Below, piece by piece: positions 10,725 to 56,031 of a stretch of 64,000 nt of DNA. How positions within the stretch are numbered: the first letter of the stretch is position 1; every line of letters starts with the position of its first letter. The notes beneath the pieces were generated by a model, which worked only from the letters and a program-made list of their open reading frames with translations, searched no databases and had not been told where the DNA came from. The stretch is from the IMG/VR virus record IMGVR_UViG_3300046674_000532; one strand, 5' to 3'. The stretch is from a virus. The position numbers and the translations under genes were made by a program.

Positions 10725-11828
10725 CTATACCGAGGGAACCTCCAGTCCAGCGCTGTCCGCGTACTCGTTCATCACACGCAGCGCCTTCACAAACGCACCC
10801 GTCGGCATCTTCCGGATGAGGTGCTGTGCAACGAAGTTCCCGTCGTCGTAGGGCAGGGTCCGCGGCGCAGGGTCCCCGCCGTCCTCGGCCTGCTGGACGG
10901 TCCGCGGTTCAGGGATCGGCTGCTCCGCCAGCACCACCGCGGGCGCATGGAGGTCCGGTGCGGTCTCCGGGACCGGAGCAGGGCCCGGCATCGGATCGGC
11001 ACCTGCTGGCTTGGACTTGGAGACGTCCGGAATTATCACGCCGTGATATTCGGCGGGCCCGGCCGAGCGTTCCGGCGCCGGGTATGGCGCGGGTTGCGGC
11101 GAAGCCGACCGGGCGGCCGCCTGGCTTTGAGCGGCTTCGGCGCGCGCGTCGGCCTTCTCAACCTGCTCCTGCGGGGTCAGCTTCCCGAGGTTGCGGACGT
11201 GCTCCACCCTGCGTGCACCGGTGACGAGGTCCTTCTGCAGCTCGGGGGTGAGCTTCAGCAGGGACAGCTTGGTGGAGAGCGTGGCCTGCGGGATCCCGAG
11301 CCGTTTCGCGGCCTTGAGCTGGGACCCGTAGTGGTCCACCAACTGCTTGAGCGCGTGGGCCTCCTCGAGGTCCGTCATGTCGTCGCGGTGGTAATTCGCG
11401 ATGAACGCGGCCTCGAGGAGGGTCTCGTCGGTGGCCAGCCGCGAGTTGTCGACCCTGACCGGGATGGTGGCCAGTCCGACGCGGCGGGAGGCCTCGAGGC
11501 GTCGGTGGCCGTCGATGACGACGTACTGGGCTCCGTCGTCGATGTCGTCGGCGCGGGCGGCCCGGTCACGGAGATAGGCCTCTGTCGTTCCGACGACGAT
11601 GGGCAGGATGATGCCGACCTGGCGGACGGACTCCACGGTCTCGTCGAGGTTGCGGAGGTGGTTGCGCGGGTTGTCGGGGTTGTCGCTGATCAGCGTGACG
11701 GGCAGTTCGGTGATGGCCGCGGTCGCTGCCGCGTCCCCTCCTATGGCGCTGTTGATGGCGTCGCGCCGTGGGCTGCGCCGGGCCGCGGCGAAGGCGGGCG
11801 CCGGGCCGAGGGTGTCGGCCTTGCTCAT
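10725..11828 (-). CDS. parB: ParB/Spo0J-family partition protein
   Basis: ParB N-terminal box ...YVVIDGHRRLEASRRVGLATIPVRV..., followed by an HTH (AAKRLGIPQATLSTKLSLLKL). Its start overlaps the parA stop. Confidence 0.85.
   Translation of the reverse strand: MSKADTLGPAPAFAAARRSPRRDAINSAIGGDAAATAAITELPVTLISDNPDNPRNHLRNLDETVESVRQVGIILPIVVGTTEAYLRDRAARADDIDDGAQYVVIDGHRRLEASRRVGLATIPVRVDNSRLATDETLLEAAFIANYHRDDMTDLEEAHALKQLVDHYGSQLKAAKRLGIPQATLSTKLSLLKLTPELQKDLVTGARRVEHVRNLGKLTPQEQVEKADARAEAAQSQAAARSASPQPAPYPAPERSAGPAEYHGVIIPDVSKSKPAGADPMPGPAPVPETAPDLHAPAVVLAEQPIPEPRTVQQAEDGGDPAPRTLPYDDGNFVAQHLIRKMPTGAFVKALRVMNEYADSAGLEVPSV
11032..11051. promoter_or_regulatory. parS-like palindrome AATTATCACGCCGTGATATT (copy inside parB)
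   Basis: Same ATTATCACG-N-CGTGATA(A/T)T motif as the two copies upstream of parA. GC-clamped flanks (CCGG...GGCGG). Confidence 0.55.
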
Positions 11829-12988
11829 CGGGTGGCCCCCTTCGCGACCTGCCGCATGGCCTCCGCCTGGTCGGACAGGGGTGCGTACGACAGCAGCGGC
11901 ATCCGCTTGCGGACCGCTTCCCGCTGTTCCTTCAGATCACCGATGACGGCCAGGACTCTCGGGTCACCGATGGCCTTCCAGCTATCCAGGGAGGAGGTGG
12001 CGACGTAACCGCGGCGCGAGTCGTACAAATTGACGACCAGGCCGAGGTAGTCGACGTCCAGGCTGAGGTCTTCGCACAGGGCTTCGATCTGCTGGTCGAG
12101 CATGCTGTACGCGGTGGCGGAGGAGTCCTCGGCGAGGACGGGAATGATGACGCCGGACTTGCCCTTGGCCTCGTTGCGGCGGCGGCGCGCGTAGTAGAGG
12201 GCGGCGTCCATGGCGATGCCGAGGCTGGGCGGGCAGTCCACGACGATGACGTCGTAGTCGGCCTCGAGGGGACGAAGTGCCATCTCCAGGGCGACTTCCT
12301 TCTGGAAGCCTCGCTTGTTCGCGGACAGGACGGCGATCCTCGAGTCGAGGAGGAATCCGTCGAAGCAGGCGGGCAGTACGTGCAGTCGCTTCTCGAACCG
12401 CGGATCGTCTATGACCACGACCAGGTCGCGGAGGTCTCCCTTGTCCTCGCCGCACATGTGGGAGACGAGGCTGTCGTGGTCGGGTGCGATCTGCAGGACA
12501 CCGAGTTGCTCGCTGAGGTGGCCTTGCGGGTCGTAGTCGACGAGCAGGACGCGCTTGCCCTGCTCGGCGTACGCCTGGGCGACGCCGGCGGAGATGGCGG
12601 TCTTGCCGACGCCGCCCTTCTGGTTGCAGACGACCTTGCGTTCGGCTTCTTCGTCCTGGGCGCCGTGCTGCGGGGAAGGGTTGGCGTCCAGCCACATCCG
12701 GACCGACTGCGCGAGGCCCTGGGTGTAGGAGACGGAGCGTTCGGTGCAGGCGTCCTTGAACGCGTCGTACTGGCCGGACGGGAGCCATGTGGAGAACGAG
12801 CGGGCGCCGGCCGTGTCGATGTCCGGGCTGATGCCGGGTTCGGCGCGCCATTGGGCGATGCCCGCGGTGACGGCGTCCTGGATGTCCAGGCCGAGCTCGG
12901 CGGCGCGGACCTTGAGTGCTTGTTGGAGCGCCGAGGGCAGCTTCGACGCTACCTTTTCCCGGTCTCCTTGGAGATATGGAGAGGCCAT
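11825..12988 (-). CDS. parA: ParA partition ATPase with a roughly 110-aa N-terminal DNA-binding-like extension
   Basis: Deviant Walker A NQKGGVGKTA, followed by VLLVDYDPQGH. The long N-terminal extension is as in type Ia ParA and has two RHH-like segments. Confidence 0.9.
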   Translation of the reverse strand: MASPYLQGDREKVASKLPSALQQALKVRAAELGLDIQDAVTAGIAQWRAEPGISPDIDTAGARSFSTWLPSGQYDAFKDACTERSVSYTQGLAQSVRMWLDANPSPQHGAQDEEAERKVVCNQKGGVGKTAISAGVAQAYAEQGKRVLLVDYDPQGHLSEQLGVLQIAPDHDSLVSHMCGEDKGDLRDLVVVIDDPRFEKRLHVLPACFDGFLLDSRIAVLSANKRGFQKEVALEMALRPLEADYDVIVVDCPPSLGIAMDAALYYARRRRNEAKGKSGVIIPVLAEDSSATAYSMLDQQIEALCEDLSLDVDYLGLVVNLYDSRRGYVATSSLDSWKAIGDPRVLAVIGDLKEQREAVRKRMPLLSYAPLSDQAEAMRQVAKGATR

Positions 12989-13074
12989 GGCGTCACCTTA
13001 CTGACTCTCCTGTCGCTCCTGTCACCCGGTTCGCCGTTCCTGACACGGTTTCATCCTTCCGGTGAGGTACCGGG

Positions 13075-13521: not shown

Positions 13522-14568
13522 TCAGGCGGACGTGGGTGCGCTGTAGCCGTAGCGGGCCCGGTCGCGTACGCACCGTGCGGCGATTTCCTCGGCTGCAACC
13601 TGCGGCCAGTTCGGGGTGTCGGTGGTGAGGTGCTGGACGGGCTGACTGCCGCCGAACCAGGAGTCGCCGGCCCGGTAGGGGATGCCGGGCTTGCAGTCCC
13701 AGTCCAGGGTCCAGTGCTCGCGGCGCCGGCCGCGTTGGCGTCCGATGGACCAGCACTCGAGGCGGACGGTCACCTCGTAGGCCTCGCCGTCCGGCATCCG
13801 AACGGTGGCAGGCGCCTTCGCCGTGACGGACACCTGCCGGTTGGTGACCTTGCCGAGCAGGTAGTGGCGGGGGTCGATGGGGATGCTGCCGCGCCACCAC
13901 CACGGGTCGTCCTTGGAGGAGCTGTCGCGGGGCGCCCACAGCTTCCAGTTGAGGCGGCCGCGATGGAGGTCGACGCCGGTGACCCTGGACTCGGTGGACA
14001 GGTCCCGGTTGCCGTTGAAGCGGCGTTGGATGAACCGGCCGTGGTCTTCGGTGTGGACGTAGATGGCGCCGAGCGGGCCAAGGGAGATGCTGGCGGCTAG
14101 GCACTGCTCGCTGCTACCGGAACCGACCTTGAGTTGAGCGCTGACGAAGTTGGACCGTCCGATGATGACCTGGGCGCCGACCGCGCTTTCCGGGTTCATC
14201 GACCAGTCACCGGGCAAGCGGATTCCCGCGTCGTGGCCGAGGCGGATGAGTTGCTTGCGCACGGTCGGGGACATCGGCTGTGTGGGATTAAACGGGCCGG
14301 TGTAGCGCTGTCCCAGATGCCACTGGTCAGGGTCCAGCCAGCCCTGGGGCTCGGGACGAATGCCACACTGTCCGCAGTTGATCCAGCGGGCCCGGCGTTC
14401 CTCTTCGGGACCGTACTTCGAGTCGTATCCGTCGACTACCGGCCGGTGACCGATCAGGCGGCACAGCAGGATGACGCGGGGCAGGCCGGAGAGGAAGAAG
14501 CCGCGGTTCATCAGGACCCAGCGGTCGGCGGAACGGTCCTTGCTGTAGTCGACGGTGAACCAGTGCAT
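13522..14568 (-). CDS. Hypothetical protein (348 aa), Trp-rich, no recognised domain
   Basis: Clean track ORF with an ATG start and an N-terminal hydrophobic segment (FFLSGLPRVILLCRLIG). Confidence 0.65.
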   Translation of the reverse strand: MHWFTVDYSKDRSADRWVLMNRGFFLSGLPRVILLCRLIGHRPVVDGYDSKYGPEEERRARWINCGQCGIRPEPQGWLDPDQWHLGQRYTGPFNPTQPMSPTVRKQLIRLGHDAGIRLPGDWSMNPESAVGAQVIIGRSNFVSAQLKVGSGSSEQCLAASISLGPLGAIYVHTEDHGRFIQRRFNGNRDLSTESRVTGVDLHRGRLNWKLWAPRDSSSKDDPWWWRGSIPIDPRHYLLGKVTNRQVSVTAKAPATVRMPDGEAYEVTVRLECWSIGRQRGRRREHWTLDWDCKPGIPYRAGDSWFGGSQPVQHLTTDTPNWPQVAAEEIAARCVRDRARYGYSAPTSA

Positions 14569-14640: not shown

Positions 14641-15087
14641 TCAGGCGGTGATCCGGTGGATCGGGATGCCGGCCTTCTTCGCCCGGCGCATGCAGTCCGC
14701 AGTGCCGGACGACTTGCCCACCTGCGCGGCGACGAGCAGCAGGGGGAGTTCGTCGATGATGGCCTGGTTGCGGCGGTGGCCGGCGACCGGACAGTACGTT
14801 CGACCGCCTGCCTTGGCGCGGCGGTGTCCGGGCTGGCATTCCGGTCCGCAGGGTCCTTCCCAGTCCGCGGGGCGCCGGCGGCGTGGGACGTGGTGGCGGA
14901 TGGCCCAGGCGTCGCCCATGGCGTCGGCCCCGTCCTGGCAGTCGCCGTGGATGAGTTCGATGCCGCTGTATCCGACCTCGAGAGCCTCGTGCCAGACGAG
15001 GAGCAGGGTGGTCTCGAGCAGGCCCGGGTCGGGCCATGTGCGGCTGCCGGTGAGGCCGATCAGAGCGAGTTGTGGGGGCGCGTTCAT
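14641..15087 (-). CDS. SLOG-superfamily DUF2493 (YspA-like) protein
   Basis: LIGLTGSRTWPDPGLLETTL...LIHGDCQDGADAMGDAWA matches the DUF2493 pattern (TGSR...HGg..GaD). ATG at 15087 overlaps the rep-like stop. Confidence 0.7.
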   Translation of the reverse strand: MNAPPQLALIGLTGSRTWPDPGLLETTLLLVWHEALEVGYSGIELIHGDCQDGADAMGDAWAIRHHVPRRRRPADWEGPCGPECQPGHRRAKAGGRTYCPVAGHRRNQAIIDELPLLLVAAQVGKSSGTADCMRRAKKAGIPIHRITA

Positions 15088-16238
15088 GCGGTGGCTCCGG
15101 CCAGGCGGTGGGCGTTGTCGTAGAGCATCCGTCCGTACAGGGCGACCGCGGCGGCCTCGCCGGCCATGACCGCGTAGTCGACGACCAGGCGGGGGTGCCG
15201 ACGGCCTAGGTCCCTCAGCTCCTGGATCTCCCCGTCCGACAGGGGCACTTCCTCGACGTCGGGCAGGACCTCGCCGTCCGGTTCCTGGCCGCGGACCACA
15301 GCGGCGGCAGCAGCGAAGGCAGCGTTCGGTGCAGTCGCGGCAGCCTCCTCGGCCTCCTGGACGGCACGGCGCGCCTGCTGGGCGGTTTCCTCGGCGAGGA
15401 CGGACTGGATGAACTCGGCGGGCTTCGCGGGCTTCCACCGGCCGACCATTCCGATCAGCTCTGCGGCGATCCGCTGGGCGTCCCAGCCGCGGTCCGTCCA
15501 CGGGCGCAGGACGAACTCGAGGCGGCGCAGCGGCACCCGCTGGGTCCAGTTGACGAGGGCGCGCACCAGCCGAATGGTGCGCATCGCCCGTTCGACGTCG
15601 CCCGCGGTGCGGCGGTGCCCGTTCTTGCTGCTGGCCTGGTGGGGGATGAATCGTTCGCGCCCCGCCTGCGGGGTGTAGTTACAACCACTCTCTACCTTCA
15701 GCTTTCCCTCTTCCTCTACCCAGGTAAGGGAAGGGGGCGCACAGGCCTCGGAACTGGGGTTGTCCACAGGCGGGTTATCCACAGGGCGGTCCTGGCCCCG
15801 CTGGTCGATGACGATCCGCGCCGTGTACCCGGAGCCGACGACCGTGTGCCCCATCGCGTGGTCGTACATGGGGGGGATGACGGCGGCGTACACGGTGGCG
15901 GTGGCGGCGTACCCGCCCATGCCGAGTGCCCGGCGGATGTTGGCCCGGGTTCCGTGCTGTACCCAGGCGAGCGCGCCCAGCTCCCGCAGGACGGCGATGT
16001 GCCGCTTGACGGTGGCCTTGTCGACGCCGAGGCGGTGCGCGGTCTCGAGCATGCAGTACCGGCCGTGCCCGGTGTCGTAGTCCATCCGCAGGGCGAGGTC
16101 CTCGGCGACCTTCTGCGTGGTGGCGTTCGCGCGGCCGTGGAGGCCGGCTGCGATCAGCCACGCGACCGCGCGAAGCCACCGTCGCGGGCCCGTTCGGCGC
16201 GAGGCAGTGCACGCCACCTCTTGGGCGGCGCCGCGCAC
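15084..16238 (-). CDS. Putative replication initiator / winged-HTH DNA-binding protein (start uncertain)
   Basis: HTH segment MLETAHRLGVDKATVKRHIAVLRELGALAWVQHG, as in actinomycete plasmid Rep-type proteins. Start guessed at the GTG at 16238; 16271 and 16217 are alternatives. Confidence 0.55.
   Translation of the reverse strand: MRGAAQEVACTASRRTGPRRWLRAVAWLIAAGLHGRANATTQKVAEDLALRMDYDTGHGRYCMLETAHRLGVDKATVKRHIAVLRELGALAWVQHGTRANIRRALGMGGYAATATVYAAVIPPMYDHAMGHTVVGSGYTARIVIDQRGQDRPVDNPPVDNPSSEACAPPSLTWVEEEGKLKVESGCNYTPQAGRERFIPHQASSKNGHRRTAGDVERAMRTIRLVRALVNWTQRVPLRRLEFVLRPWTDRGWDAQRIAAELIGMVGRWKPAKPAEFIQSVLAEETAQQARRAVQEAEEAAATAPNAAFAAAAAVVRGQEPDGEVLPDVEEVPLSDGEIQELRDLGRRHPRLVVDYAVMAGEAAAVALYGRMLYDNAHRLAGATA
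15757..15785 (+). promoter_or_regulatory. Two tandem DnaA boxes (TTGTCCACA, TTATCCACA) within 14-bp direct repeats GGGTT(G/A)TCCACAGG
   Basis: 15760..15768 is the Streptomyces DnaA-box consensus and 15775..15783 the E. coli consensus. Spacing is 15 bp. The boxes lie inside the rep-like ORF, where they encode VDNPPVDNP. Confidence 0.6.
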
Positions 16239-16658
16239 GGGGTGGGCCCGACCTGCACTGTATTCGATCAGGTGTTCGGTTTCGAGGGTGGTGGTGTGCG
16301 TGTCTCGTGTGGGCTGGGGGCACTGGGTGCCGCCCAACCGGGGGGAGATAAGCCGCGAATCGCCCGACGAGGGGACCCTGAGCTGACAAGAGGGTGCCGA
16401 GTGCTGCACTATGTACCTGCCGTCCTGCGGACATGCAAAAGCCCGCTCGGTGGTGAAGGTGGTTCTGGGATGAACCTGAAGGTCGCTCGAATCTCGGGCC
16501 GGTCGCCAAACCGGATCTGAAGTTCGGGCCTTAGCTCCGAGGGCCAACTCGGAGCAGTTGCACGAAGGCCGCGCACGGTGCGCCAACACCAGCGGCCAGC
16601 GGTAGAGGAAGCGCCCCCGCCAAGGGGCACCGGACCTCCCGCTCAGGAAGTTCCTAGG

Positions 16659-17102
16659 TCACTCGTTCTCCTTCACTGGTCGGATCTTGTTCGTCCGTCG
16701 GGCCTCCAACTTGGAAACGCCGTAACGGACTTCATCGGCACGATCGCAGGCGGCCAGGATGGACATCGCCAGTTCGCGAGCCGTGGTGGTGGGGACAGCC
16801 ATGAAGTCTTCCGCGACCATGGCGTCCGGTGTGGAGATGAAGACACAGTCGGCGTCGTCGGGGAGGTCCGTCGCTCGGACCAACCAGCCGTCCCGCTCCC
16901 GCCGGTAGAAGTGGTCGTAGACCTTCCTGGGCATCGGGGCGGACACTGACCACTCACGTCCCGGCATGGGGTGAGGGCGCTGGTGGACAACGCTGGGTCG
17001 GGGCTTCTCCGCGGTGTGGGCCAGGGCAAGGATCTCTGAAAGCTGCTGGCGCAGGTCTCCGAGAGTCACCTCAGCGGCCGACTGCTCGGCCGGGCTGCTC
17101 AT
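16659..17102 (-). CDS. Hypothetical protein (147 aa)
   Basis: Track ORF 16659..17177 trimmed to the ATG at 17102 (MSSPAEQSAA...). Confidence 0.55.
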   Translation of the reverse strand: MSSPAEQSAAEVTLGDLRQQLSEILALAHTAEKPRPSVVHQRPHPMPGREWSVSAPMPRKVYDHFYRRERDGWLVRATDLPDDADCVFISTPDAMVAEDFMAVPTTTARELAMSILAACDRADEVRYGVSKLEARRTNKIRPVKENE

Positions 17103-17380
17103 GCTGCTGAGGGGGTAGTGGTGACAGGGCCCGATCGCGCCAGCGGTGTGATGTTCACGCCGGGATCGCGGGTCCACCTGTCTACGGGGTCACGGCCCCG
17201 GGTACTCTGCTCCATGTCGGCACCTTCGTCGCTGTTGAGTGTCGGCCCGGCCCCGCACCGGTTGTTGACGCAACCGGGATACTGCGGGGCCGTTCCAATG
17301 TCTTGGGCGCCCTGTCCGTCCAGACCACGTTCTGACTGGACGTCTGGGGCTAGGCGCAGCCTATCGGTTGGGCGTGTCAT
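17099..17380 (-). CDS. Questionable ORF (93 aa) with atypically low GC3
   Basis: ATG at 17380 has GGAGG about 10 nt upstream, and its stop overlaps the next start (ATGA). However, many codons end in A/T, so it may be non-coding. Confidence 0.3.
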   Translation of the reverse strand: MTRPTDRLRLAPDVQSERGLDGQGAQDIGTAPQYPGCVNNRCGAGPTLNSDEGADMEQSTRGRDPVDRWTRDPGVNITPLARSGPVTTTPSAA

Positions 17381-17430: not shown

Positions 17431-17910
17431 TCAGTGCTCCCGAGCGTCCTCGTCGTCCGCCGGGTGCCACTCCGGGGCACGCTCCGCGACCTGCCGGGAC
17501 CGGCCCGCCATCCCACCCATCGCCCGGAACCCCGCCTGCGCCAACTCGCCCTGCAACCGGGCCAGCCGGTCCCGGTTGAAGCGGGGCGCCGCCATCAACT
17601 GCCCGGCCCGCACCCCCACCACCAGCGCCCGGTCCCAGATCTCCTGCACGTCCGCCGGATCCATCCCCGGGAACAAGTCCCGCGGCAGTTTCCGCGGCGT
17701 TCCCGCCGTGTCCAACTGGGCGGCCGCGATCAGCCCGGCCAGATGCTGGCCCGTCGATGCGGCCCGCCCCGCCAGGACGAGGTCGCACATCGCGTCCTGG
17801 CCGACGTCGGCCGACCACCCGGCCTTGACGACCCCGCCAGCGGCCGGACCGCCCACGGCCCCCGTCCCGATGGAGGCGGGCAGGGAGGTGGAGTCAGGGG
17901 TGTTGCTCAT
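17431..17910 (-). CDS. Hypothetical protein (159 aa)
   Basis: Track ORF 17431..18198 trimmed to the ATG at 17910 (MSNTPDSTSL...), which overlaps the upstream stop. Confidence 0.55.
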   Translation of the reverse strand: MSNTPDSTSLPASIGTGAVGGPAAGGVVKAGWSADVGQDAMCDLVLAGRAASTGQHLAGLIAAAQLDTAGTPRKLPRDLFPGMDPADVQEIWDRALVVGVRAGQLMAAPRFNRDRLARLQGELAQAGFRAMGGMAGRSRQVAERAPEWHPADDEDAREH

Positions 17911-18833
17911 GCTGCAGCCTCCAGCGGCGTAGCGGGGAACAGGGAACACACATCGGCGACCTGGGCCAGGTCGGCTTCCATCTCGGCGAGCAGCAGATCC
18001 AACTGCCCGGGTACCTCCACGAACCGCTCCCGCAACGACAGCCGGCGCACCCGCTCCGTACGCCGCCCCGGCACACGCTGCTCGCCCTCGTCGACGTCGG
18101 CGACCGGCAGCCGGGCCAGGAGCCGCTCGAACTCCACCGCCCACAACAGCAACTGCCCGTTCGCCTCCACGGTGTGCGTCTTCACCCCCGACGGACACGC
18201 CAGCACCGACCCGTCATCCGCCACCACCAGGCCAGCGTCGACCAGGCCACGCTCCACCGCCGCGGCGAGCAGCTCCATCCGCGACGCCTCACGCGACAGG
18301 CCCATCAGCGTGACAATCGCCGACCGCTGCCAACCCGCCGTCCGCACATCCATCCGCGCCGCCGCAGCCACCCGATACGGATCCGCGTGCCCGGCCAGCG
18401 CAGCCAGAACGGCCAGCTTCTGCTCCGTCCGCAACTTCGCGTCCGCGGCCGCACCCATCACCTCGTGACGGTGCCGGATGAACGCCGTGTGCCGCTCCGT
18501 CTGCGTCTCCGCGCCCCACACCCCGTGCGGCTCCGCCAACCGCGCCACATCCCCGTCCATCACCACGGTGTTGGCGTACGCGGCGCACTGCACCATCACC
18601 GGACAGTCCAGACACACTTCGACCGCCGCGGCCTCCCGCGCCCGGCGTACCGGCTGCCTCTCCCCACCATCCACATCCGGAGCGAAATGCGCCCCCAGCG
18701 GCAGGTCCAGGTTCCCCGCCATCCGCGACGGCAGCACCGGATCCGGCGCACACCCCCGATACCGGAACCGCGGATGCGTCTCCCACGCCGCACGCGCCAC
18801 CGCCACACTCACCTGCTCACCGGTGCCCGTCAT
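17907..18833 (-). CDS. Second WhiB-like domain protein fused to a long C-terminal region with a LuxR-like HTH (308 aa)
   Basis: Cys pattern GC-x47-CLDCPVMVQC. The later segment WQRSAIVTLMGLSREASRMELLAAAVERGLV is HTH-like. Confidence 0.65.
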   Translation of the reverse strand: MTGTGEQVSVAVARAAWETHPRFRYRGCAPDPVLPSRMAGNLDLPLGAHFAPDVDGGERQPVRRAREAAAVEVCLDCPVMVQCAAYANTVVMDGDVARLAEPHGVWGAETQTERHTAFIRHRHEVMGAAADAKLRTEQKLAVLAALAGHADPYRVAAAARMDVRTAGWQRSAIVTLMGLSREASRMELLAAAVERGLVDAGLVVADDGSVLACPSGVKTHTVEANGQLLLWAVEFERLLARLPVADVDEGEQRVPGRRTERVRRLSLRERFVEVPGQLDLLLAEMEADLAQVADVCSLFPATPLEAAA

Positions 18834-19774: not shown

Positions 19775-20167
19775 TCACTGCTCGCCGCCCTCGGCGCCTG
19801 CGGCCAGGAGGCCGGCAAGGCTCTGGAGGTGGGCGGCCGGGCCGAGGTCGGTGTAGAAGGAGCCTGCGGGCAGCGGGGGCAACTGCGCGGGCACGGCCTG
19901 GTGCACGAGCGGCTGGTCCGCCAGACCGAGCCCCTTACCGGCGCGCGACCACGCCTGGCACGGCGGAGACCAGATCTGCTTCTTCGACCGCCCCTTGAAT
20001 GGAGCGGTCGGGTACTGGGCGACGTCGCACTGGATAGTCAGGTGGCCCGCCGCCGCGCGGGTCTTGCACGCTGCGGTGTCCCACTCCAGCCCCACATCGC
20101 GAAGGCCAAGCAGCCGCAGCCCTTCCGACCAGCCACCAGGCCCTGCGAACCCGTCGAGGATCGTCAT
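19775..20167 (-). pseudogene. Truncated DNA (cytosine-5) methyltransferase (N-terminal 130 aa only)
   Basis: Motif I (ILDGFAGPGGWSEG) and motif IV (SPPCQAWSRAGKG) are present. ENV, the QxRxR/TRD and motifs IX-X are absent. The ORF stops after 130 aa and the 240 nt downstream have no continuing frame. Confidence 0.6.
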
Positions 20168-21123
20168 CAGGCGGCGCTCCTCTCTGCGGCGTTGGCCTGG
20201 GCGGCCTGTTCCTTCAACTGGGCGATGCGGCGCGTCAGGAGGTCCTCAACGCGCACGTCCATCTCGCCGACCTTCACCGTCTCGTCCAGAAGGCCGTGCT
20301 TCCTGGCGTCGGCAAGGTTCTGCTCGCACGACAGACGGTTCTTCCACCCGGCGTTGATTTTCTCCTTGAGGCCTTCCAGCGTGGTCCCCGCAGCCTGCTC
20401 CTGCCGGTGCACGTCCTCCCGCTGCTCTTCCGTAGGACTGGCAGGCACGGCATCTACCGCTTCCTGCTTCGCGGCCGCTACATCCGGCTCGGCCTCCACC
20501 TTGTCGTCCTTGAACTCGGCCTCCTTCGGCGCCTTCCAGTACGGAAGCGACGACTGCACCACCGGGGACAGACGGCCCTTGTTGTACAGGGACAGGCCGA
20601 ACTGATCACCCAGGTTGGTGGCCGCCCGCTTCAAGGCCTGCGAGTCGGCGGTCTTCAGCGCCAGGTCGTGAGCATCGGCCCGGGACGGCTGGTTCGTGGC
20701 GTCCCCGGTGGCGATGCCGTGCCAGTGGCCCAGCTCGATCCCGTCCACCTTCACCGACAGGCGAACCGCGACGCGGTAGATGACCGTCCACGCATCGAAG
20801 GGGTTCCCGTACGGGCGACCGTTCTTGTCCTTCTTCTGGTGGTCCGGGATGCAGGTCTCGGCGATCAGCGTCGACTCCAGCAGGTCGGTGTCGTGCCCGC
20901 CGAACCCGAAGATGCGGATCAGGTAGCGCCGAATGTCCCAGGCCTCCATGTGCGCGAAGCCCTTGCCGTCCGAACCCACCCGGTCCGGGTCAACGGGGCG
21001 CAGCAGCTGGGCGATCTGGAGGTCGGACAGGGTGCCCAGGCGGCGGGCCGGGGCCTGGTTTTGGGTGTGCGAGGTGGGGCCCTCCGCCGTCGTGCTGGCG
21101 AGGGCCTCGGTGGCCGGGGCCAT
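20167..21123 (-). CDS. Rad52/Sak-type single-strand annealing protein
   Basis: EAWDIRRYLIRIFGFGGHDTDLL and AHDLALKTADSQALKRAATNLGDQFGLSLYN parallel the Rad52 motifs (..NE.FG..GW.. and ..A.TD.LKRAL..FGN.LG). Confidence 0.75.
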   Translation of the reverse strand: MAPATEALASTTAEGPTSHTQNQAPARRLGTLSDLQIAQLLRPVDPDRVGSDGKGFAHMEAWDIRRYLIRIFGFGGHDTDLLESTLIAETCIPDHQKKDKNGRPYGNPFDAWTVIYRVAVRLSVKVDGIELGHWHGIATGDATNQPSRADAHDLALKTADSQALKRAATNLGDQFGLSLYNKGRLSPVVQSSLPYWKAPKEAEFKDDKVEAEPDVAAAKQEAVDAVPASPTEEQREDVHRQEQAAGTTLEGLKEKINAGWKNRLSCEQNLADARKHGLLDETVKVGEMDVRVEDLLTRRIAQLKEQAAQANAAERSAA

Positions 21124-21206
21124 GAGGTCTCTCCTATGAGGTTGTGCGAAGTACGGGGCGCGGGGCCCGGCTGGTGTCGGCGTCCAGGCCGACCCCGCGC
21201 AGACGG

Positions 21207-22100
21207 CTATGCGGCGGGCTCGCCGAGGCGGTCCTTCAGGATCGCCACCGCGATCGAACCGGGGAACATCTTGTAATCCAGGGCCTCAGATACCCGCGGC
21301 TCCACGTCACGGAGCTGCTCGAGCAGGTCGGCGTTCACCCGGACCGGCAGCCACGTCGCATCGTCCAGCGACCGGCTACCCGGCGCCGCCTTCGACGGAC
21401 GCGGCGGCAGCCACTCCCCGCCGGCCAGCGAACGGATCCCGTCCTCCAGAACCTTCTGCAGCGCCACGCCCTGACGGCCGGACTCGGCAATGAGGTGCTG
21501 CTCCAGGGGCTTCAGGACCCGCAGCTTCAGCATCTCCACACCGACCGGACTGTCGACGCCCAGCTCCTCCGTCATCCACAGCAGAGCGATACCGCCCTCC
21601 GTGATGGGATAGCCGGCCTCCTCCGACAGCGACGCCAGCCGCTCCTGCACCTGCGCCCGCAGGTCCGCGTCGATGTTGACGGTCATCACCGCGCGGCCGG
21701 GGCGCCGTTCACCCTTCAGCCAGCGCTTCGTCTTACGCTGCGGCGGCAGCCACCTGCCCTCCAGCACCAGTCGGTAGCCGTCCTCGACCACATCGGTCAG
21801 CAGCACACCCAGCTCGTCCGCAGCCGCCCTCAGGGCGTCCCGCATATCCGTGTTCGTGGTGATGGTCAGCGGCGACTTGCCGGGCCCGTCAGCGGGAGCG
21901 GCGTCACGCAGCAGCGTCCACCCGCCCCGCACCAGGACCGCCCGGACATCGGCAGCCGAGTCGGGATGGCCGGCGTCCTCCAGACGCTGGGCGGCGAGGG
22001 TCAGACGGTCGTGGATGGGACGGGCCACGTGGAGCGGTCCTCTCGGATGGCACCTCCCCGGCTCCTTGCGGGCCGGCGGGTGCGTGGGGGCGTTGGCCAC
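21207..22100 (-). CDS. Hypothetical protein with three ribbon-helix-helix-like repeats (297 aa); candidate DNA-binding regulator
   Basis: GTG at 22100 has GGAGGA 7 nt upstream. Modules recur as L-T/N-I/V-x-x-D/N-x-D/A-L-R...L (LTITTNTDMRDALR, MTVNIDADLRAQV, LPVRVNADLLEQL). Confidence 0.55.
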   Translation of the reverse strand: MANAPTHPPARKEPGRCHPRGPLHVARPIHDRLTLAAQRLEDAGHPDSAADVRAVLVRGGWTLLRDAAPADGPGKSPLTITTNTDMRDALRAAADELGVLLTDVVEDGYRLVLEGRWLPPQRKTKRWLKGERRPGRAVMTVNIDADLRAQVQERLASLSEEAGYPITEGGIALLWMTEELGVDSPVGVEMLKLRVLKPLEQHLIAESGRQGVALQKVLEDGIRSLAGGEWLPPRPSKAAPGSRSLDDATWLPVRVNADLLEQLRDVEPRVSEALDYKMFPGSIAVAILKDRLGEPAA

Positions 22101-24989: not shown

Positions 24990-25958
24990 ATGCTCATTTC
25001 GCCCCGCCCGGGCACCGACCGGGACAACCTCCTCCAGACCCTGCGGTCCGTGCACACCAGCGCCTCCAACGAGCACGGCCGCGGCTACGACAACGCCTAC
25101 AAGCGGCTGCTGGGATATCTGGAGTGGGCGATGGGCGCAGCCCGGCTGCTGCGCAACCAGATCAGCACCGAGGACCTGCACGCCTTGGTACTGACGAAGG
25201 GCCACGACACCCTGCTGAACGGCATCGGCGACCTCGAGGGTTCACGACGGGAACGCCTGGTGAACCTGCTTGTCGACCAAGAACTCGCCGAGCGCACCGA
25301 GGCACTCGAGGCCACAGTCAACCTGCTCCAATCACTGAGGCACCGCTGGCCAGGACACGAACGGTTCGTTGTCGCCGACCCCAGCTTCTACATCCAGAAC
25401 GAGATCAAGCTGGCCGACGTCGACCTGCACCAGGTGCTCGGCATCCGGGAAGAGGCCTTCATCCGGCTGCTGTTCCCCATCGTGGTGGTCGACGAGCTCG
25501 ACGGGCTGAAGGACGCGGGCAAGCCGCGGCCCCGGTGGAGGGCAGCCCACACACTCGGCCTCCTCGACGGGGTCCTGAACGGCGACACCGAAGGTGTTCT
25601 GCACCCCGGAACCTACGACCCCAGCAACGGGGAGACCCTGGGTAAAGTCATCGTGGAAATCGTCCTCGATCCTCCCGGGCATGTCCGCCTACCGCTGGCC
25701 GACGACGAGATCGTCGACCGGGCGGTCGTCCTCCAAGCCCTCGGCGGCCGCGACGTACGTCTGCTGACGTGCGACACCAGCCAGCACACCCGCGGCTGCG
25801 CGGCCGGCCTGCAGGTGACGAAGGTCGCGACGAAAGACCCCGGCCCCGAGCCCGACTGGGAGGCCGAGGGCAAGCCGGGGACCGGCGTACGGGCGCAGCG
25901 CCGCGCCAGGCAGGAAGCCAGGAACGGCAGTTCCGCCGAGGCGCCCGCGAACTCATGA
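24990..25958 (+). CDS. PIN-domain nuclease with an N-terminal helical domain (322 aa)
   Basis: Four acidic positions in PIN order: FVVADPSF, VVVDELDGL, DDEIVDRAV, LLTCDTSQ. The 3' end overlaps the recombinase 3' end by 6 nt (convergent). Confidence 0.65.
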   Translation: MLISPRPGTDRDNLLQTLRSVHTSASNEHGRGYDNAYKRLLGYLEWAMGAARLLRNQISTEDLHALVLTKGHDTLLNGIGDLEGSRRERLVNLLVDQELAERTEALEATVNLLQSLRHRWPGHERFVVADPSFYIQNEIKLADVDLHQVLGIREEAFIRLLFPIVVVDELDGLKDAGKPRPRWRAAHTLGLLDGVLNGDTEGVLHPGTYDPSNGETLGKVIVEIVLDPPGHVRLPLADDEIVDRAVVLQALGGRDVRLLTCDTSQHTRGCAAGLQVTKVATKDPGPEPDWEAEGKPGTGVRAQRRARQEARNGSSAEAPANS

Positions 25959-27101
25959 CCCGGCAGGCCCGGCCTCCTTGACGGCTGCCTTCCCGATCTG
26001 CGCGAGCGGGTTGTTCTCGCCCTGGGCGTCGTCCTCGTCTACGTAGCCGATCAGCGCTTTGGACTGGTCGTCCCAGCCGCCGTGCCGGCCGATCTGCACG
26101 ATGTCGACGCCCGCGGTCCGGGCCGACTTCACGAAGCCGCGGCGGGAGGAGTGGGAGCGCCACCGGCCCGGCAGCCCGGTCCGCTCGATGGACCGCTGGA
26201 TGACGTCGGAGGCGGCCTCGGTCGTCAGCCGTCCGTCCTCGGCGCCGATAGGCTCACCGCCACGCTGCATCTCCGGGTTGAGGTAGCCCCAGCGGTCCAT
26301 GCGCAGGAACAGGGGGCCCACGGTGTGTCCGTTGTCGGCGAGGGCGGCAACCAGGGCGCGGACCGCGCGGACGGCGCACAGGTCGGGTTCGGGGTCGAGC
26401 GGAATGTCGGGGGTCTGCCACATCTTGCGCTTCTTGCGGTAGACGCGGACCTGCAGACCGCCGTCGGGGAGATCGGTGAAGCTGTCCGGCCAGTTCAGCG
26501 GCACGAGTTCGCTGCCGCGCGAGGCCAGCGCGTGACCGAGCAGCATCAGGGCGGCGTCCCGCTTCCCTGCCAGGGTGGTGCGGTCCAGCTCACCGAGCGC
26601 GGTGCGCAGGACGGTCCGGTCGGCGGGGCTCGCCTTCTGCGGGCGGGCGGCCGGGTCCTGGGCGAGGGCGAGCTGCTCGCGGTAGCCGGCCACGACCTTC
26701 CGGGCGCCCATGGTGTCCGGGGGCCGGTACCCGGCGGCCCGGTGGGAGGAGCGGATGGACGCGATGACGCGGTCCATCGTGTTCGGTCCGTACGGGCGTC
26801 CGGTGCGCGGCCGCGGAGTGCGCTTCAGGTAGGAGAGGTACTCGGTGACGGTCTGCGGCGCAGCCGGCAGCGGGCGGCGGCCGACGGACAGGCACCATGC
26901 GGTGAAGCGGTCCATGTCGCCCTTGTACGCCTTGGTGGTCTCCTCCGGGATTCCGGCCTTGACATCCTGCTGGGCTTCCTCGGACAGCCAGGCGTCCGGG
27001 TCCTCTTCCGTCAACGGGACGGCGGGGGCCCGGTCTTCGGGGATGGCGGGCAGCCGGTCGTCGACCAGCTCCGCGTCGACCACCTCGTCGCGCATGCTCA
27101 C
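25953..27101 (-). CDS. Tyrosine recombinase (integrase or plasmid dimer resolvase)
   Basis: Catalytic set present: ALASRGSELVPL (Arg), WRSHSSRRGF (HxxR), GRHGGW (Trp), ALIGYVDE (Tyr). The N-terminal SAM-like domain includes TVTEYLSYL. Confidence 0.9.
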   Translation of the reverse strand: MSMRDEVVDAELVDDRLPAIPEDRAPAVPLTEEDPDAWLSEEAQQDVKAGIPEETTKAYKGDMDRFTAWCLSVGRRPLPAAPQTVTEYLSYLKRTPRPRTGRPYGPNTMDRVIASIRSSHRAAGYRPPDTMGARKVVAGYREQLALAQDPAARPQKASPADRTVLRTALGELDRTTLAGKRDAALMLLGHALASRGSELVPLNWPDSFTDLPDGGLQVRVYRKKRKMWQTPDIPLDPEPDLCAVRAVRALVAALADNGHTVGPLFLRMDRWGYLNPEMQRGGEPIGAEDGRLTTEAASDVIQRSIERTGLPGRWRSHSSRRGFVKSARTAGVDIVQIGRHGGWDDQSKALIGYVDEDDAQGENNPLAQIGKAAVKEAGPAGS

Positions 27102-27493
27102 GGCCGCCAGTTCTCCTTGTAGTCCTGGTGCGTGGCGTACTCCAGCGCGTGCAGTTTGATGACGTCCATGTAAGCGACGGTGGCCACCTGGGAGTTGTCG
27201 TGGTCCCAGTTCATCTCCTTGCCGCGGAGGGTCTGGCCCAGTGCGGCTTCGAACATGTCCAGGGTGGCTTCGATCGCGTCCAGGTGAGCTTTGAAGCGTC
27301 CCAAGGGGACGAGGGCTGTCGTGCCGCCGCCGGTGCCGATCTGGTGCTGTGCCCCTGTGATGACCGGACAGTGCACGGCGTCCAGCGTGCTACGGTCGTC
27401 GGCGATGCGTTTCCGGAGGAAGGTGGTGAGGTCGTCCACCGCGGGTGGGCCGGACGCGGCAATGACGCGGTGGGCGATTTCGGCCTCGTTCAC
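27098..27493 (-). CDS. Hypothetical protein (131 aa), co-transcribed with the recombinase
   Basis: GTG at 27493 has GGGGAG 6 nt upstream. The stop overlaps the recombinase start (ATGA). Confidence 0.55.
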   Translation of the reverse strand: MNEAEIAHRVIAASGPPAVDDLTTFLRKRIADDRSTLDAVHCPVITGAQHQIGTGGGTTALVPLGRFKAHLDAIEATLDMFEAALGQTLRGKEMNWDHDNSQVATVAYMDVIKLHALEYATHQDYKENWRP

Positions 27494-37877: not shown

Positions 37878-38975
37878 TCAGGAGTCCTCCGGCGATCCGT
37901 AGTGGAAGCTGTCGGCGCGCCGCAGCGTCAGGACGGCCTGGTCGGGGTTGTCGCCGGGCTGGTAGGAGTCGGCCGTGATGCGCGCCCATCCGGTGTACGA
38001 CGTCCACTCGTTGTGCACTGCTACCTGGACGTCGTCGCCGATCTGCCAGGACCCGAGGCGGGCGTTGGGGTGGTCGCGGACGGTGATCTGGTCGACCTGG
38101 CCCATGATCTGAAGCTTGCGGCGTTCGGCGGTCGCGCGGCGGCCGAGGACGTCGTTGCCGTTGACGGTGGGCAGGGCCAGCACGGTCTCCATGCGGAGGC
38201 GGCCGTCGCGGGCGGGGTCGACGGCGAAGCGGGTGGCGGTGCCTTCGCCGCTGCCGGTGGCGATGACGACGTTGGCGTAGTCGTCCCCGGACCGCTTGAC
38301 CGGCGGCGCGTTGATGATGTTCACGCCGGACCGGAAGCTGATGTCGGTGCGGCGGGCGCCCAGACGCGGGTAGCCGAGCGCGAGGCGCCGGCGGATGCTG
38401 CCGTTGGACTGGAAGGAGCAGAGGTTGGTGTACTGCGGGGCGCCGTCCTCGGACACCAGGTCGTCTACCAGCTCGCCCAGCACCGGGGTCTCGTACCAGT
38501 AGGAATGCCACGGCTCGGCCGGCGTCCCGGACTTCGCGCTGGACGTGGTGGAGTCGACGACGACGCCGAGGTTCCCGTCCGGCTGCTCCTGCGCGTACGC
38601 CCAGATGTCGCGGATGATGTCGCACGGGTCGGCGTACGTGTACGGACCGCGTCCGTTCAGTTCGCCGTGCTCGTCGTGCCGCTTGGTCAGGTACGACGAC
38701 CAGGACGCGGCCTCGAGCCGGTACTCACCGCCTTCGGCTTCCACGGACCAGACGAGGCCGCCCCAGCGCAGGAACCCGTCCGCTTCCGCGTAGATCAGGG
38801 CGACGGCCGGTTCGACCAGTGCAGCGTTCGCGGCGACCCAGTGCGGGGCGAGGGTGGCGGAGAAGCTGCCGGGGCCGTTGAGTTCGTTGCCGAACTCCAC
38901 CCCGGACAGCGGCAGTGCGGGGTGGAGGACGGCGCCAGTCAGCGCGTGCTGCGTGAAAAAGCGCCAGCGCCCCAT
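37878..38975 (-). CDS. Minor tail / baseplate-hub-like protein (365 aa)
   Basis: ATG at 38975 (MGRWRFFTQH...) overlaps the upstream stop. Position lies between Dit-like and fibre genes. Confidence 0.7.
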   Translation of the reverse strand: MGRWRFFTQHALTGAVLHPALPLSGVEFGNELNGPGSFSATLAPHWVAANAALVEPAVALIYAEADGFLRWGGLVWSVEAEGGEYRLEAASWSSYLTKRHDEHGELNGRGPYTYADPCDIIRDIWAYAQEQPDGNLGVVVDSTTSSAKSGTPAEPWHSYWYETPVLGELVDDLVSEDGAPQYTNLCSFQSNGSIRRRLALGYPRLGARRTDISFRSGVNIINAPPVKRSGDDYANVVIATGSGEGTATRFAVDPARDGRLRMETVLALPTVNGNDVLGRRATAERRKLQIMGQVDQITVRDHPNARLGSWQIGDDVQVAVHNEWTSYTGWARITADSYQPGDNPDQAVLTLRRADSFHYGSPEDS

Positions 38976-39928
38976 CAGATGGCGCCCTCGGTGAACTCCA
39001 CGTCGATGATGAAGCTGGTGGCGCCGTCCACGCCGATCTTCCCCGCGTTGGAGGACCGGGTCCGCATGCGGGCCTTGAAGGCCTGGTTGGTGCCGCGCAT
39101 CGCGGCGCCCGCAGTGGTGGTGAGGCTGATCGTCTCGGCCATCACCAGGGAGGGGACGCGGCGGGCGGCGGAGCCCTGGTTGTCGTCGATGGAGACCCAC
39201 TGGGCGGCCTCTTCGGTGCCCAGCATAAAACGGAAGCCGCCGAACACGTTGCCGTCGACCAGGCGTATGCCGCCGGCGGAGAAAACGACCTTTGCGGAGG
39301 CGGCCCAGGCGGGGATCGCGATGGTCGCCATGGTCAGGTTGGGGTGGGTCTTCCACGTCTCCGAGGTGCCGGAGATCTCCACCAGCGGGTCGGACGCGTA
39401 GTACGGGTACAGGATGCGTTCGCGGCGCGGGTTGGCGACCTTCCGCAGGTCCACGATCATCGCGGCGGTGATGGTCGCGGTCGAGGCCGGGATGTCGATG
39501 CGGGCCAGCGGGATCGCCGAGTACCCGGAGGGCACCGTCGTCGCGGACGAGCCGACGTTGGTGACGACCTGCCAGTAGACGATCGGGTCCTCGGCCGGGT
39601 CGCGGGTGCCCTCGTAATCGGGGTCTTCGACGCGCAGGATCAGCATGTCGGAGCGCGGTGACCCGCCGGTGGCGGAGATCGACACGGTGTCGGAGCCGAT
39701 GTTGTAGGCCGAGTAGTAGCCCTGGAACGTGTTCGCCTTCCCGGCGATGACGGCCGATCCGTCACTGATCTGGACGCCGGCGCCGGGCGTGGACAGGGCG
39801 GACACCTTCAGGTCCAGGCCGGTGGTGACGCCCTGGTTGTCCCGCGCCAGGTCTTTAATCATCATGCGGAACTGCTGGGCGGTGTGCTCGGCCCCGGTGG
39901 TTGCGATCGGGGTGCCGTTGAGCGCCAT
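38975..39928 (-). CDS. Minor tail protein (317 aa)
   Basis: Clean track ORF, beta-rich, within the tail module. Confidence 0.65.
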   Translation of the reverse strand: MALNGTPIATTGAEHTAQQFRMMIKDLARDNQGVTTGLDLKVSALSTPGAGVQISDGSAVIAGKANTFQGYYSAYNIGSDTVSISATGGSPRSDMLILRVEDPDYEGTRDPAEDPIVYWQVVTNVGSSATTVPSGYSAIPLARIDIPASTATITAAMIVDLRKVANPRRERILYPYYASDPLVEISGTSETWKTHPNLTMATIAIPAWAASAKVVFSAGGIRLVDGNVFGGFRFMLGTEEAAQWVSIDDNQGSAARRVPSLVMAETISLTTTAGAAMRGTNQAFKARMRTRSSNAGKIGVDGATSFIIDVEFTEGAI

Positions 39929-39938
39929 GACGGGCCTC

Positions 39939-40835
39939 CTACAGGGCCTTGTAGGCGGGCCACCAGGTGACGGCCAGCGTGGACGTGAGCGTGTTGTCGG
40001 TGGCGTTCCACCGAATCTCGTTGAGGCCCGGGGTGAGGACGAACTGGTCGATGCGGGAGACGGCGGTGAGGGGGGCGCCGCCGCCGTTCTCGCGCAGCAC
40101 GGTGCGCCAGCCGGGCCGGGTGTCGATCTGCACCCACTCCCCGGCGGCCAGCGTCGTCTGCACGGTCAGCGTCCGGCCGGAGCCGACGTGGGTGATGGAG
40201 GGGTTGGCGCACGGCCCGTTGACCCGCAGAACGGGTGCGGTGGCCTTGGTGCCGTCGACCTGGATGTAGCCGGGGCGGGCGATTGCGGATGCGGCTCCGG
40301 CGATCGTGAACGGGAACTGCAGGGGGAAGGTCATGCCGCCCTCGGTGAGGCTGCCGAGCGGCATGGACGTCGTCTCCGCCTGGTCGGCGTAGTAGAGGTG
40401 GTCCTGCGCCTGGAACTCGATGTCGAGCGGCGCGTAGCCGAAGATGACCTGTTCCAGGTTGGGTTCGAACTTTCGCAGGCGGCCGCGGACGACGCGGGTG
40501 GTACGGCCGGGGAACTTCAGCCGCAGGTCCATGGTCGTGCCGGCCTGCCCGCGGACGGCGTCGGTGTCGGCGAGGTCCTGGAGGTCGGCGGCGATGTCGA
40601 GGACGCCGGGCACGTCCTCGACGACCTTGACGGCGGCGTCGATGCGGATGAGGCGGCCGGCGTAGTAGTCGGTGCCCAGCCAGGTGCCGTCCTCCCCGGG
40701 CGGGTCCACGTCGGCGGTGCGCAGCGGGGGCTGGCCGAGGCCTTCGACGGTTTTGATGGGGATGCTGGTGCCGCGTCCGATGAGGACGCCGCCGAGTTCG
40801 TGCTGGAAGTCGCTCAGCTCGATGGGTGTGCTCAT
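39939..40835 (-). CDS. Distal tail protein (Dit)-like (298 aa)
   Basis: ATG at 40835 overlaps the tape-measure stop (ATGA). The size and the position directly after the tape-measure gene are typical for Dit. Confidence 0.65.
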   Translation of the reverse strand: MSTPIELSDFQHELGGVLIGRGTSIPIKTVEGLGQPPLRTADVDPPGEDGTWLGTDYYAGRLIRIDAAVKVVEDVPGVLDIAADLQDLADTDAVRGQAGTTMDLRLKFPGRTTRVVRGRLRKFEPNLEQVIFGYAPLDIEFQAQDHLYYADQAETTSMPLGSLTEGGMTFPLQFPFTIAGAASAIARPGYIQVDGTKATAPVLRVNGPCANPSITHVGSGRTLTVQTTLAAGEWVQIDTRPGWRTVLRENGGGAPLTAVSRIDQFVLTPGLNEIRWNATDNTLTSTLAVTWWPAYKAL

Positions 40836-45925: not shown

Positions 45926-45967
45926 CGGTACGCCCCTCCCTCGCTGCTCGACTCGTGCGGTGTGCGG

Positions 45968-52288: not shown

Positions 52289-52301
52289 GTCGGGCCCCTA
52301 C

Positions 52302-55995: not shown

Positions 55996-56013
55996 AGCGA
56001 TCCTTCCGCTATC

Positions 56014-56028: not shown

Positions 56029-56031
56029 TGA

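Follow-up and report, generated by a model that had tools for sequence, protein, structure and literature searches.

The box pair and the gene that contains it

The 64,000-nt stretch of the viral record IMGVR_UViG_3300046674_000532 analysed here (hereafter the window, to whose positions all coordinates refer unless otherwise stated) is a pZL12-like Streptomyces plasmid-prophage. Its minus strand carries, at 15084..16238, a putative initiator gene encoding 384 aa when counted from a GTG at 16238, a start that is uncertain. Within this gene, the plus strand of positions 15757-15785 reads GGGTTGTCCACAGG-C-GGGTTATCCACAGG and contains two perfect DnaA-box 9-mers in the same orientation, 15 bp apart from start to start. 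The first of them in the direction of the gene (box 1; 15775..15783, minus strand) has the coding-strand sequence TGTGGATAA and the plus-strand sequence TTATCCACA, and is read in the frame (CC)T GTG GAT AA(C). Box 2 (15760..15768, minus strand), located 15 bp from box 1, is TGTGGACAA in the coding direction and TTGTCCACA on the opposite, plus strand. Both are perfect matches, TTATCCACA to the E. coli consensus and TTGTCCACA to the consensus of the Streptomyces oriC boxes, for which a degenerate form, [T/C][T/C][G/A]TCCAC[A/C], has also been described (PMC3583192). As developed below from sequence comparisons, we consider it rather more probable than the alternatives taken together that the two boxes are genuine host-DnaA sites, and that they form one end of a cis-acting replication element of ~113 bp (15674-15786) placed inside the initiator-like gene.

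An original prediction, made from the letters of the window alone, had described two same-orientation DnaA boxes 15 bp apart in a direct repeat and had argued that such a pair was unlikely to arise by chance. The window sequence and a repeat search, in which a 15-nt direct repeat (family D3) was found to hold the pair, bore out the first statement, and the second agreed with shuffle counts: the 64-kb window has 3 copies of TTRTCCACA versus 0.21 expected from shuffles, none of which reached 3, and 4 copies of TTNTCCACA versus 0.60 expected. A chance origin of the box pair was ruled out by these counts. The duplicated peptide VDNP-P-VDNP, also predicted, could be read directly from the minus-strand codons of 15785-15757 (CCT GTG GAT AAC CCG CCT GTG GAC AAC CC), which specify P-V-D-N-P-P-V-D-N-P inside the listed open reading frame (ORF) 15084..16589. 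The protein encoded in the window is 38.6% identical to pZL12.20c of the Streptomyces phage/plasmid ZL12, and the complete pZL12 (90,435 bp) harbours only two copies of TTNTCCACA, at its positions 12358 and 12382, both in the homologous linker. Similarly, in homologous loci of ~6 kb, boxes were found almost only in this linker, and on the coding strand every time.

A second box-like pair in the window, also with both members in the same orientation, lies on the plus strand at 59385-59418. Its members, 25 bp apart, are a degenerate TGTGGACGG and a perfect TGTGGACAA, and the pair sits in an ORF of 111 aa (59300-59635) for which no relatives were found in genome contigs or PLSDB. The perfect box is read there as GGT GTG GAC AAC (G-V-D-N), with a rare T-ending codon ahead.

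The listed ORF of the initiator-like gene (15084..16589, 501 aa) was found to be over-extended at its 5' end. The G+C content at third codon positions (GC3) puts the coding start near the GTG at 16238, and we take this codon as the probable start because a GC3 of ~0.65 upstream of 16240 indicates non-coding DNA; the first ~115 codons of the 501-aa ORF, with that GC3, are probably non-coding. Between 16240 and 16420 (minus strand) there are short stretches conserved among homologues, such as TCTTGTCAG, which resembles a -35 element, and GATTCGCGGCTTATCTCC, and these may correspond to the promoter or operator of the gene.

An AlphaFold2 model of the protein, built with 55 sequences, comprised a confident winged-helix N-terminal domain (residues 13-125), a low-confidence stretch of 74 residues (126-199, with per-residue confidence scores, pLDDT, of 26-42) and a confident helical C-terminal domain (205-384). 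The segment 126-199 is predicted to be a disordered linker. It contains both the residues encoded by the boxes (152-160) and the low-GC tract described in the following section. The location of the box-encoded residues had been called linker-like beforehand, and the model agrees in placing them between two confident domains.

Constraint on the linker-coding DNA

The homologue set comprised 81 loci, namely 57 genomic loci (window and pZL12 included) and 24 non-duplicate IMG/VR viral contigs. Fifty-five genomic loci were fetched for codon reading and yielded a first set of 51 V-[D/E]-N tripeptides, to which the IMG/VR set added 34, giving a total of 85. The codon preceding the valine ended in T in 85/85 of these tripeptides (51/51 genomic, 34/34 IMG/VR). 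Among the first 51, this codon was CCT in 42, GCT in 6, TCT in 2 and CTT in 1; that is, the residue varied and the T was constant. Valine was encoded by GTG in 84 of the 85 tripeptides (50/51 genomic, 34/34 IMG/VR) and never by GTC. Over all 85 tripeptides, aspartate was GAT in 46 of 79 cases (25 GAT and 23 GAC in the genomic set) and glutamate was GAA in 6/6 (3/3 in the set of 51), and asparagine was AAC in 51/51 of the first set. The 9-mers of those 51 tripeptides were TGTGGATAA (25), TGTGGACAA (22), TGTGGAAAA (3) and TGTAGACAA (1), which amounts to TTNTCCACA with position 3 alone free (A/G/T), the very position that distinguishes the E. coli consensus from the Streptomyces one. As a baseline, where the domains of these genes align well, codons ending in T amounted to 5.9%, CCT to 6% of proline codons, GTG to 40% of valine codons and GAT to 8% of aspartate codons. 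Moreover, the share of the commonest codon was 0.96 at the two valine columns of the boxes versus 0.60 at 32 conserved four-fold-degenerate columns elsewhere, a value low enough to indicate that synonymous sites elsewhere in the gene are otherwise free.

These codon counts indicate that the boxes are selected as DNA and not as peptide, and that the VDNP repeat is a by-product, the mere translation of the boxes, because the third-base T of the preceding codon is kept while the residue changes, something that peptide selection cannot explain. Conservation of the boxes in homologues having the same peptide had been set beforehand as a test of the prediction, and all 85 V-[D/E]-N tripeptides were found to carry a box.

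The boxes are not the only conserved DNA in this segment. Box 2 is separated by a spacer of 18 bp (15742..15759, minus strand), variable in sequence and fixed in length, from an invariant 15-mer, TGCGCCCCCTTCCCT (15727..15741, minus strand), whose family consensus is T-G[AC]G-[AC]CC-CCT-TCC-CT. The spacing between boxes was exactly 15 bp in 31 loci (21 + 10) or 24 bp in 15 loci (10 + 5), and the last box and the 15-mer were exactly 27 bp apart, start to start, in 35/43 genomic and 13/17 viral loci, with varying codons in between. The proline codon of the 15-mer was CCT in 54 of 55 sequences, versus the 6% baseline, and its first codon had a constant third-base T with a variable amino acid (C/L/R/G/S). 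The 15-mer was present even in homologues lacking DnaA boxes, including 10 genomic homologues without VDN altogether. The linker tolerates insertions and deletions on the N-terminal side of the boxes. Being predicted as disordered, tolerant to such changes and devoid of VDN in ten homologues that keep the 15-mer, the linker peptide is probably dispensable.

A low-GC tract, purine-rich on the coding strand, was found at 15674..15733 (minus strand), with 48% GC vs ~70-75% in its flanks. The 60 bp of lowest GC content in the whole coding sequence begin at the 15-mer in 52 of the 57 loci; they average 53% GC and, when ranked among all the 60-bp segments of their locus, fall on average at the 1.4th percentile. 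Conservation in this tract concerns the use of A/T-ending codons rather than exact bases. In a codon alignment of the 57 loci, GC3 was ~0.85-0.95 in the part encoding the N-terminal domain (16240-15790), fell to 0.46-0.70 at 15788-15674 and was ~0.85-0.92 in the part encoding the C-terminal domain. The constraint at DNA level is limited to the 113 bp encoding the linker, and the low-GC tract is a candidate DNA-unwinding element or Rep-binding core.

Other signals were sought in the same segment. RNAalifold gave an energy of ~0 on both strands (49-56 distinct sequences), so no conserved RNA or single-stranded DNA secondary structure was detected, and the fold obtained for the window segment as a single sequence was not conserved among homologues. 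The box pair was the only tandem repeat family in the segment (repeat search of 14900-17300). Neither an internal sigma-70-type promoter nor a terminator was found in it. An internal in-frame start after the Shine-Dalgarno-like AAGGAAGAGG was discarded, the start column being ATG, GTA, CTA, GAA or GCT in the homologues and GTA in the window.

Two strains were found to carry two members of the family each, on separate contigs and with the same 15-mer: Streptomyces rectiviolaceus JCM 9092 (loci L011 and L030) and Streptomyces sp. N35 (loci L034 and L050). The identity of the 15-mer in these co-resident members and in box-less ones hints at its recognition by a conserved factor.

A candidate origin, its rivals and its relatives

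The best reading of these data is that a replication origin is embedded in the part of the initiator-like gene encoding the linker and is helped by host DnaA; the middle of the gene is thus the probable origin. In the direction of the gene, the proposed element would consist of two DnaA boxes with 6 bp between them (15 bp in certain relatives), the free spacer of 18 bp, the 15-mer (also given as TGMGMCCCCTTCCCT) and ~55 bp of low-GC DNA that would melt easily. Host DnaA would occupy the box pair, and the plasmid's initiator-like protein and/or a conserved host factor would bind the invariant core, 27 bp away. DnaA and the core-bound factor would then jointly melt the low-GC tract and bring in the DnaB helicase of the host. 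DciA, the helicase loader or operator of bacteria without DnaC/DnaI, Actinobacteria among them, could aid the helicase step, supplied by the plasmid in those relatives that encode one and by the host in the case of the window. The copies would be partitioned by the products of the parAB genes located downstream, and the whole would constitute the replicon for the plasmid state of a pZL12-like plasmid-prophage. DnaA binding, origin activity, the unwinding site and the recruitment of helicase are what we infer in this scheme. The original prediction had left the choice between host-DnaA-assisted initiation at an origin inside rep and DnaA titration. We favour initiation because of the 27-bp spacing, the low-GC tract, the parAB genes and the presence of DciA in many relatives; conservation at DNA level, fixed spacing, the low-GC tract and the neighbouring genes are all consistent with it.

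Real DnaA sites may have functions other than initiation. The boxes could act as regulators, either as a mid-gene roadblock or transcription factor site tying expression of the full-length initiator-like protein and of the genes co-transcribed downstream (SLOG or DciA, parAB) to the DnaA status of the host, or by titrating DnaA. Selection at DNA level tells that the sites matter, not what their role is, and the genes that follow have the orientation of the initiator-like gene and are in part coupled in translation (an ATGA overlap; DciA abutting the stop codon). Besides, many bacteria use DnaA as a transcription factor (PMC8203912), and a DnaA-box cluster regulating Streptomyces replication has been described (Smulczyk-Krawczyszyn 2006, as cited). 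However, two sites per low-copy element of ~90 kb would be a feeble sink for DnaA, a roadblock has no need of a fixed distance of 27 bp to a second invariant motif or of a conserved low-GC tract, and a promoter-like site was not found in the segment. We therefore regard a purely regulatory function as unlikely, albeit as the rival to be taken most seriously.

It should also be considered that the 9-mers might serve the winged-helix protein of the element itself, or some other protein of plasmid or phage origin, in place of DnaA, as operators or iteron-like sites whose sequence happens to coincide with that of a DnaA box. The N-terminal domain is a highly conserved winged helix, the N-terminal domain of the pSK41 initiator binds repeats that are central in its own gene (PMC5703833), and the extended repeat GGGTTRTCCACAGG, of 14-15 bp, is longer than a DnaA box. 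Yet sequence outside the 9-mer varies among homologues, in which Asn can be followed by P, S, A, L, R, C or E and the codon ahead of Val changes in its first two bases, so the conserved unit is the 9-mer itself, and its one variable position varies among chromosomal boxes too. Furthermore, sites specific to a plasmid initiator normally differ from one related or co-resident plasmid to another, whereas the boxes are identical across proteins that share 35-70% identity, and box-less members of the family have the same N-terminal domain. Binding by a protein of the element thus appears quite improbable.

Conservation at the level of protein or translation, either of VDNP-P-VDNP as a short linear motif or of rare codons slowing translation between the domains, with an incidental likeness to DnaA boxes, is very hard to sustain: P-V-D-N-x-P-V-D-N is indeed nearly invariant in the protein alignment, amid insertions of variable length, and the segment is rich in rare codons, but the T was kept in every tripeptide while the residue switched among P, A, S and L, rare codons ending in A never occupied the preceding position, valine used the common GTG yet never GTC, the commonest, the region is predicted to be disordered, the linker of box-less homologues is unrelated and rich in S/E/Q, and conserved RNA structure was seen on neither strand, so that the synonymous-site data, with their controls, contradict both versions.

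Several observations weigh against an origin assisted by DnaA inside this gene. The boxes are absent in ~10/57 genomic and 5/24 viral homologues (about a fifth) and hence cannot be indispensable for the whole family; for the same reason they are accessory to a core that the whole family shares, made of the 15-mer and the low-GC tract. A 15-mer shared by co-resident members would be unusual for a Rep-specific origin core that determines incompatibility. The repeat search of 14900-17300 returned two-copy families only, with no iterons either within the gene or ahead of it, and a DciA gene was not found in the window by tblastn. GC skew, plotted for the window and for the complete pZL12, follows gene orientation and marks no origin. 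Nor was any trio-like repeat found at 15786-15830, a stretch coding for GYxARIVIDQ with a GC3 of ~0.9. In the chromosomal geometry of E. coli oriC, three or more 3'-GAT-5' DnaA-trios come after a GC-rich spacer, 5' of the box on the strand reading TGTGGATAA. The low-GC tract is on the opposite side of the boxes from this E. coli-derived geometry, and a DnaA-trio or basal-unwinding arrangement was ruled out with the tract on that wrong side. The orientation of proximal DnaA boxes does matter (PMC6669920). As for pZL12, its GenBank record has no gene named repA, and papers citing the pZL12 study give no detail. That study (by Zhong et al., in J Bacteriol 192:3747, 2010) is said to have defined a pZL12 'repA', to which pZL12.20c, the orthologue of the window gene, may correspond.

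Nor could the protein itself be placed in a known initiator family. It matched no family in Pfam (E <= 0.01), NCBIfam, PHROGs or the PDB sequence profile, and a Foldseek search against the PDB returned generic winged-helix repressors alone (E >= 0.2), which are further points against the proposed origin. In the fold search, the structure 4pql of a RepA_N N-terminal domain appeared at rank 31 (E 0.5), and the sequence of the window protein had just sub-threshold generic helix-turn-helix matches, on the N-terminal domain. In distant members of the family, Pfam HTH_36 scored just above cut-off and RP-C (PF03428) below it, with 16-18 bits vs 24.4; HTH_36 is the family found in the phage-like N-terminal domain of the pPR9 initiator (PMC5703833). 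These searches gave a generic winged helix only and did not establish membership in a known Rep family. The description of the protein as Rep-like stands in part: its architecture and gene neighbours agree with it, and it has no support from homology to any known Rep family.

Systems with some of these features are known. P1 is itself a plasmid-prophage with a rep-then-parAB layout. The lambda ori lies inside gene O, in the stretch joining the DNA-binding domain to the one that recruits proteins. The Streptomyces linear plasmids pSLA2 and pSCL1 reportedly have their origin inside rep1, according to the work of Chang, Kim and Cohen in 1996. Lambda and these two plasmids resemble the window in having an origin within the coding sequence of the initiator, the plasmids being a precedent from the same genus, and differ from it in that their origins are made of iterons bound by their own initiator; here there are sites for the host initiator and no iterons. 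In P1 oriR, F ori2, pSC101 and RK2 oriV, one or two DnaA boxes are located at the AT-rich edge, beside the DNA bound by the initiator, and DnaA is accessory (see del Solar 1998, as cited in PMC5703833). The boxes of the window, 27 bp from the 15-mer at which the 60 bp of lowest GC in the gene begin, recall this arrangement. Those origins are, however, outside the rep coding sequence, depend on initiators of the Rep_3 family and contain arrays of 17-22-bp iterons, and none of the three applies here.

In architecture, the closest parallel is the RepA_N initiator of pSK41, whose N-terminal domain (residues 1-120) binds repeats in the centre of rep, whose linker (residues 121-199), encoded by the ori, is dispensable, and whose C-terminal domain contacts host replication proteins (PMC5703833). 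Both proteins have a winged-helix N-terminal domain of ~120 aa, a central linker (121-199 in pSK41, 126-199 here) and a C-terminal domain conserved only within the host group, and in both the cis-acting DNA would lie in the linker-coding part and the linker peptide be dispensable or unconstrained, the origin function being inferred in our case. On the other hand, the window protein has no RepA_N domain (PF06970), the centre of its gene has no Rep boxes or iterons, and the hosts are high-GC Actinobacteria as opposed to Firmicutes. Host DnaA boxes are in the centre of the gene here, whereas none was detected in the staphylococcal plasmids (PMC5703833). The RepC replicons of alphaproteobacterial repABC plasmids have their oriV inside repC, at an A+T-rich region that codon choice preserves and where silent mutations that raise the GC content abolish replication, and their origins are devoid of DnaA boxes and iterons (PMC3155836). 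Similarly, A/T-ending codons keep a low-GC tract inside the initiator-like gene here (52/57 homologues), and parAB-type genes are linked to it; unlike in those replicons, the RP-C domain is not in the window protein and is sub-threshold in distant members, and the initiator-like gene is upstream of parAB.

Origins inside rep and plasmid origins assisted by DnaA are therefore known kinds; what is new here is the combination of in-frame boxes, no iterons, no known Rep domain and high-GC hosts. To our knowledge, no Streptomyces plasmid or actinophage replicon is known to use host DnaA. More tentatively, and with less confidence than doubt, we suggest that the family could represent a previously unrecognised class of DnaA-dependent Streptomycetaceae replicons, comprising plasmid-prophages and large linear or circular plasmids, in which the whole origin (box pair, 15-mer at 27 bp and codon-encoded unwinding tract) would be written in frame into the DNA for the initiator's disordered linker and would work with a plasmid-borne DciA. 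The 15-mer may be recognised by a conserved factor of the host and not by the plasmid protein, and if so these would be largely 'host-initiated' replicons with the winged-helix protein as specificity or recruitment adaptor.

A family of some 80 elements or more whose DnaA boxes are under selection offers a testable entry to the coupling of plasmid and plasmid-prophage replication with the cell cycle of the Streptomyces host, and opens the question of DciA-type helicase loading by mobile elements. It also constitutes a clean natural case of overlapping codes, where DNA-binding sites dictate the sequence of a protein linker, and its codon signature could be used to find embedded origins elsewhere. 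In practical terms, the gene is a compact candidate replicon (~1.3 kb plus promoter) for low-copy Streptomyces vectors.

Gene neighbourhood and distribution of the family

The genes around the initiator-like gene are arranged on the minus strand in the order initiator-like gene, SLOG/DUF2493 gene, ORF of 348 aa, parA and parB. The second of them (14641..15087, minus strand; 148 aa) encodes a YspA/SLOG protein (DUF2493; 'GTP-binding domain' in PHROG), and its start codon shares the sequence ATGA with the stop codon of the initiator-like gene; the listed ORF of 286 aa at 14641..15501 is an over-extension of it. In many relatives dciA is found at this position or after it. The SLOG family also follows the initiator-like gene in ~10 other loci, sometimes before dciA. 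Downstream, parA (~12997..11825, minus strand) encodes an AAA_31/CbiA protein and is followed by parB (~11936..10725, minus strand), with ParB_N and HTH_ParB domains. The same order is found in pZL12: 20c, 19c, 18c (DciA-like), ParA 17c and ParB 16c. pZL12 thus resembles the window in its homologue 20c and in the neighbours, as well as in having the sole two DnaA boxes of its 90-kb genome in the 20c linker.

By tblastn, 32 of ~58 loci had a DciA gene on the same strand no more than ~1.5 kb downstream of the initiator-like gene, and often in contact with its stop codon; many Streptomyces plasmids and plasmid-prophages thus have dciA as the next gene. DciA (PF05258) matched pZL12.18c with an E value of 3.9e-8 and the corresponding gene of plasmid CP075614 with 1.1e-16. 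pZL12.18c (locus L001, 5857-6621) is annotated as a 'putative Tra3-like protein', and locus L002 has its DciA gene at 1863-2645. Nine of the 10 box-less loci had no DciA gene, counting the loci as they stand and with no correction for phylogeny. The position of dciA in relatives is occupied in the window by the ORF of 348 aa (13522-14568, minus strand). This ORF and one of 172 aa on the other side of the module (16659-17177, minus strand) gave no match in Pfam, NCBIfam or PHROGs.

The initiator-like family numbered 470 members at E <= 1e-5 in a large protein collection, many of them on contigs of ~90 kb, and 91 PLSDB plasmids, ranging from 59 kb to 1.8 Mb and all from Streptomyces or Actinacidiphila, carried it. 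The family appears to be narrow and specific to plasmids and plasmid-prophages of the Streptomycetaceae, since a profile search of 1.84 billion representatives returned 199 clusters only. Its members are labelled in databases as 'hypothetical', 'HTH domain-containing' or 'cell wall protein', and the present analysis corrects the 'cell wall protein' and 'hypothetical' annotations.

The closest relatives of the window at DNA level are Streptomyces plasmids of ~86-94 kb, including pSLE1 and a plasmid of 89.7 kb from S. ambofaciens. Its phage genes comprise those for a minor tail protein (38975-40165), a tape-measure protein (40832-45967), a major head protein (51227-52297), a portal (54106-56031) and a large terminase (56428-58119). 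A gene of the tyrosine integrase family lies at 25953-27389 (minus strand), recognised by a weak match below the Pfam cut-off. Given this match, and given that pSLE1 carries integrases (PMC4487206), pZL12-like plasmid-prophages may also integrate. The integrase-family gene and a Rad52/22-family recombinase gene (20167-21285, minus strand) are located a few kb from the replication and partition module. Upstream of this module, at 17907-18833 (minus strand), there is a gene for a protein of 308 aa with a WhiB-like domain (PF02467, PHROG 472), which is long for a WhiB.

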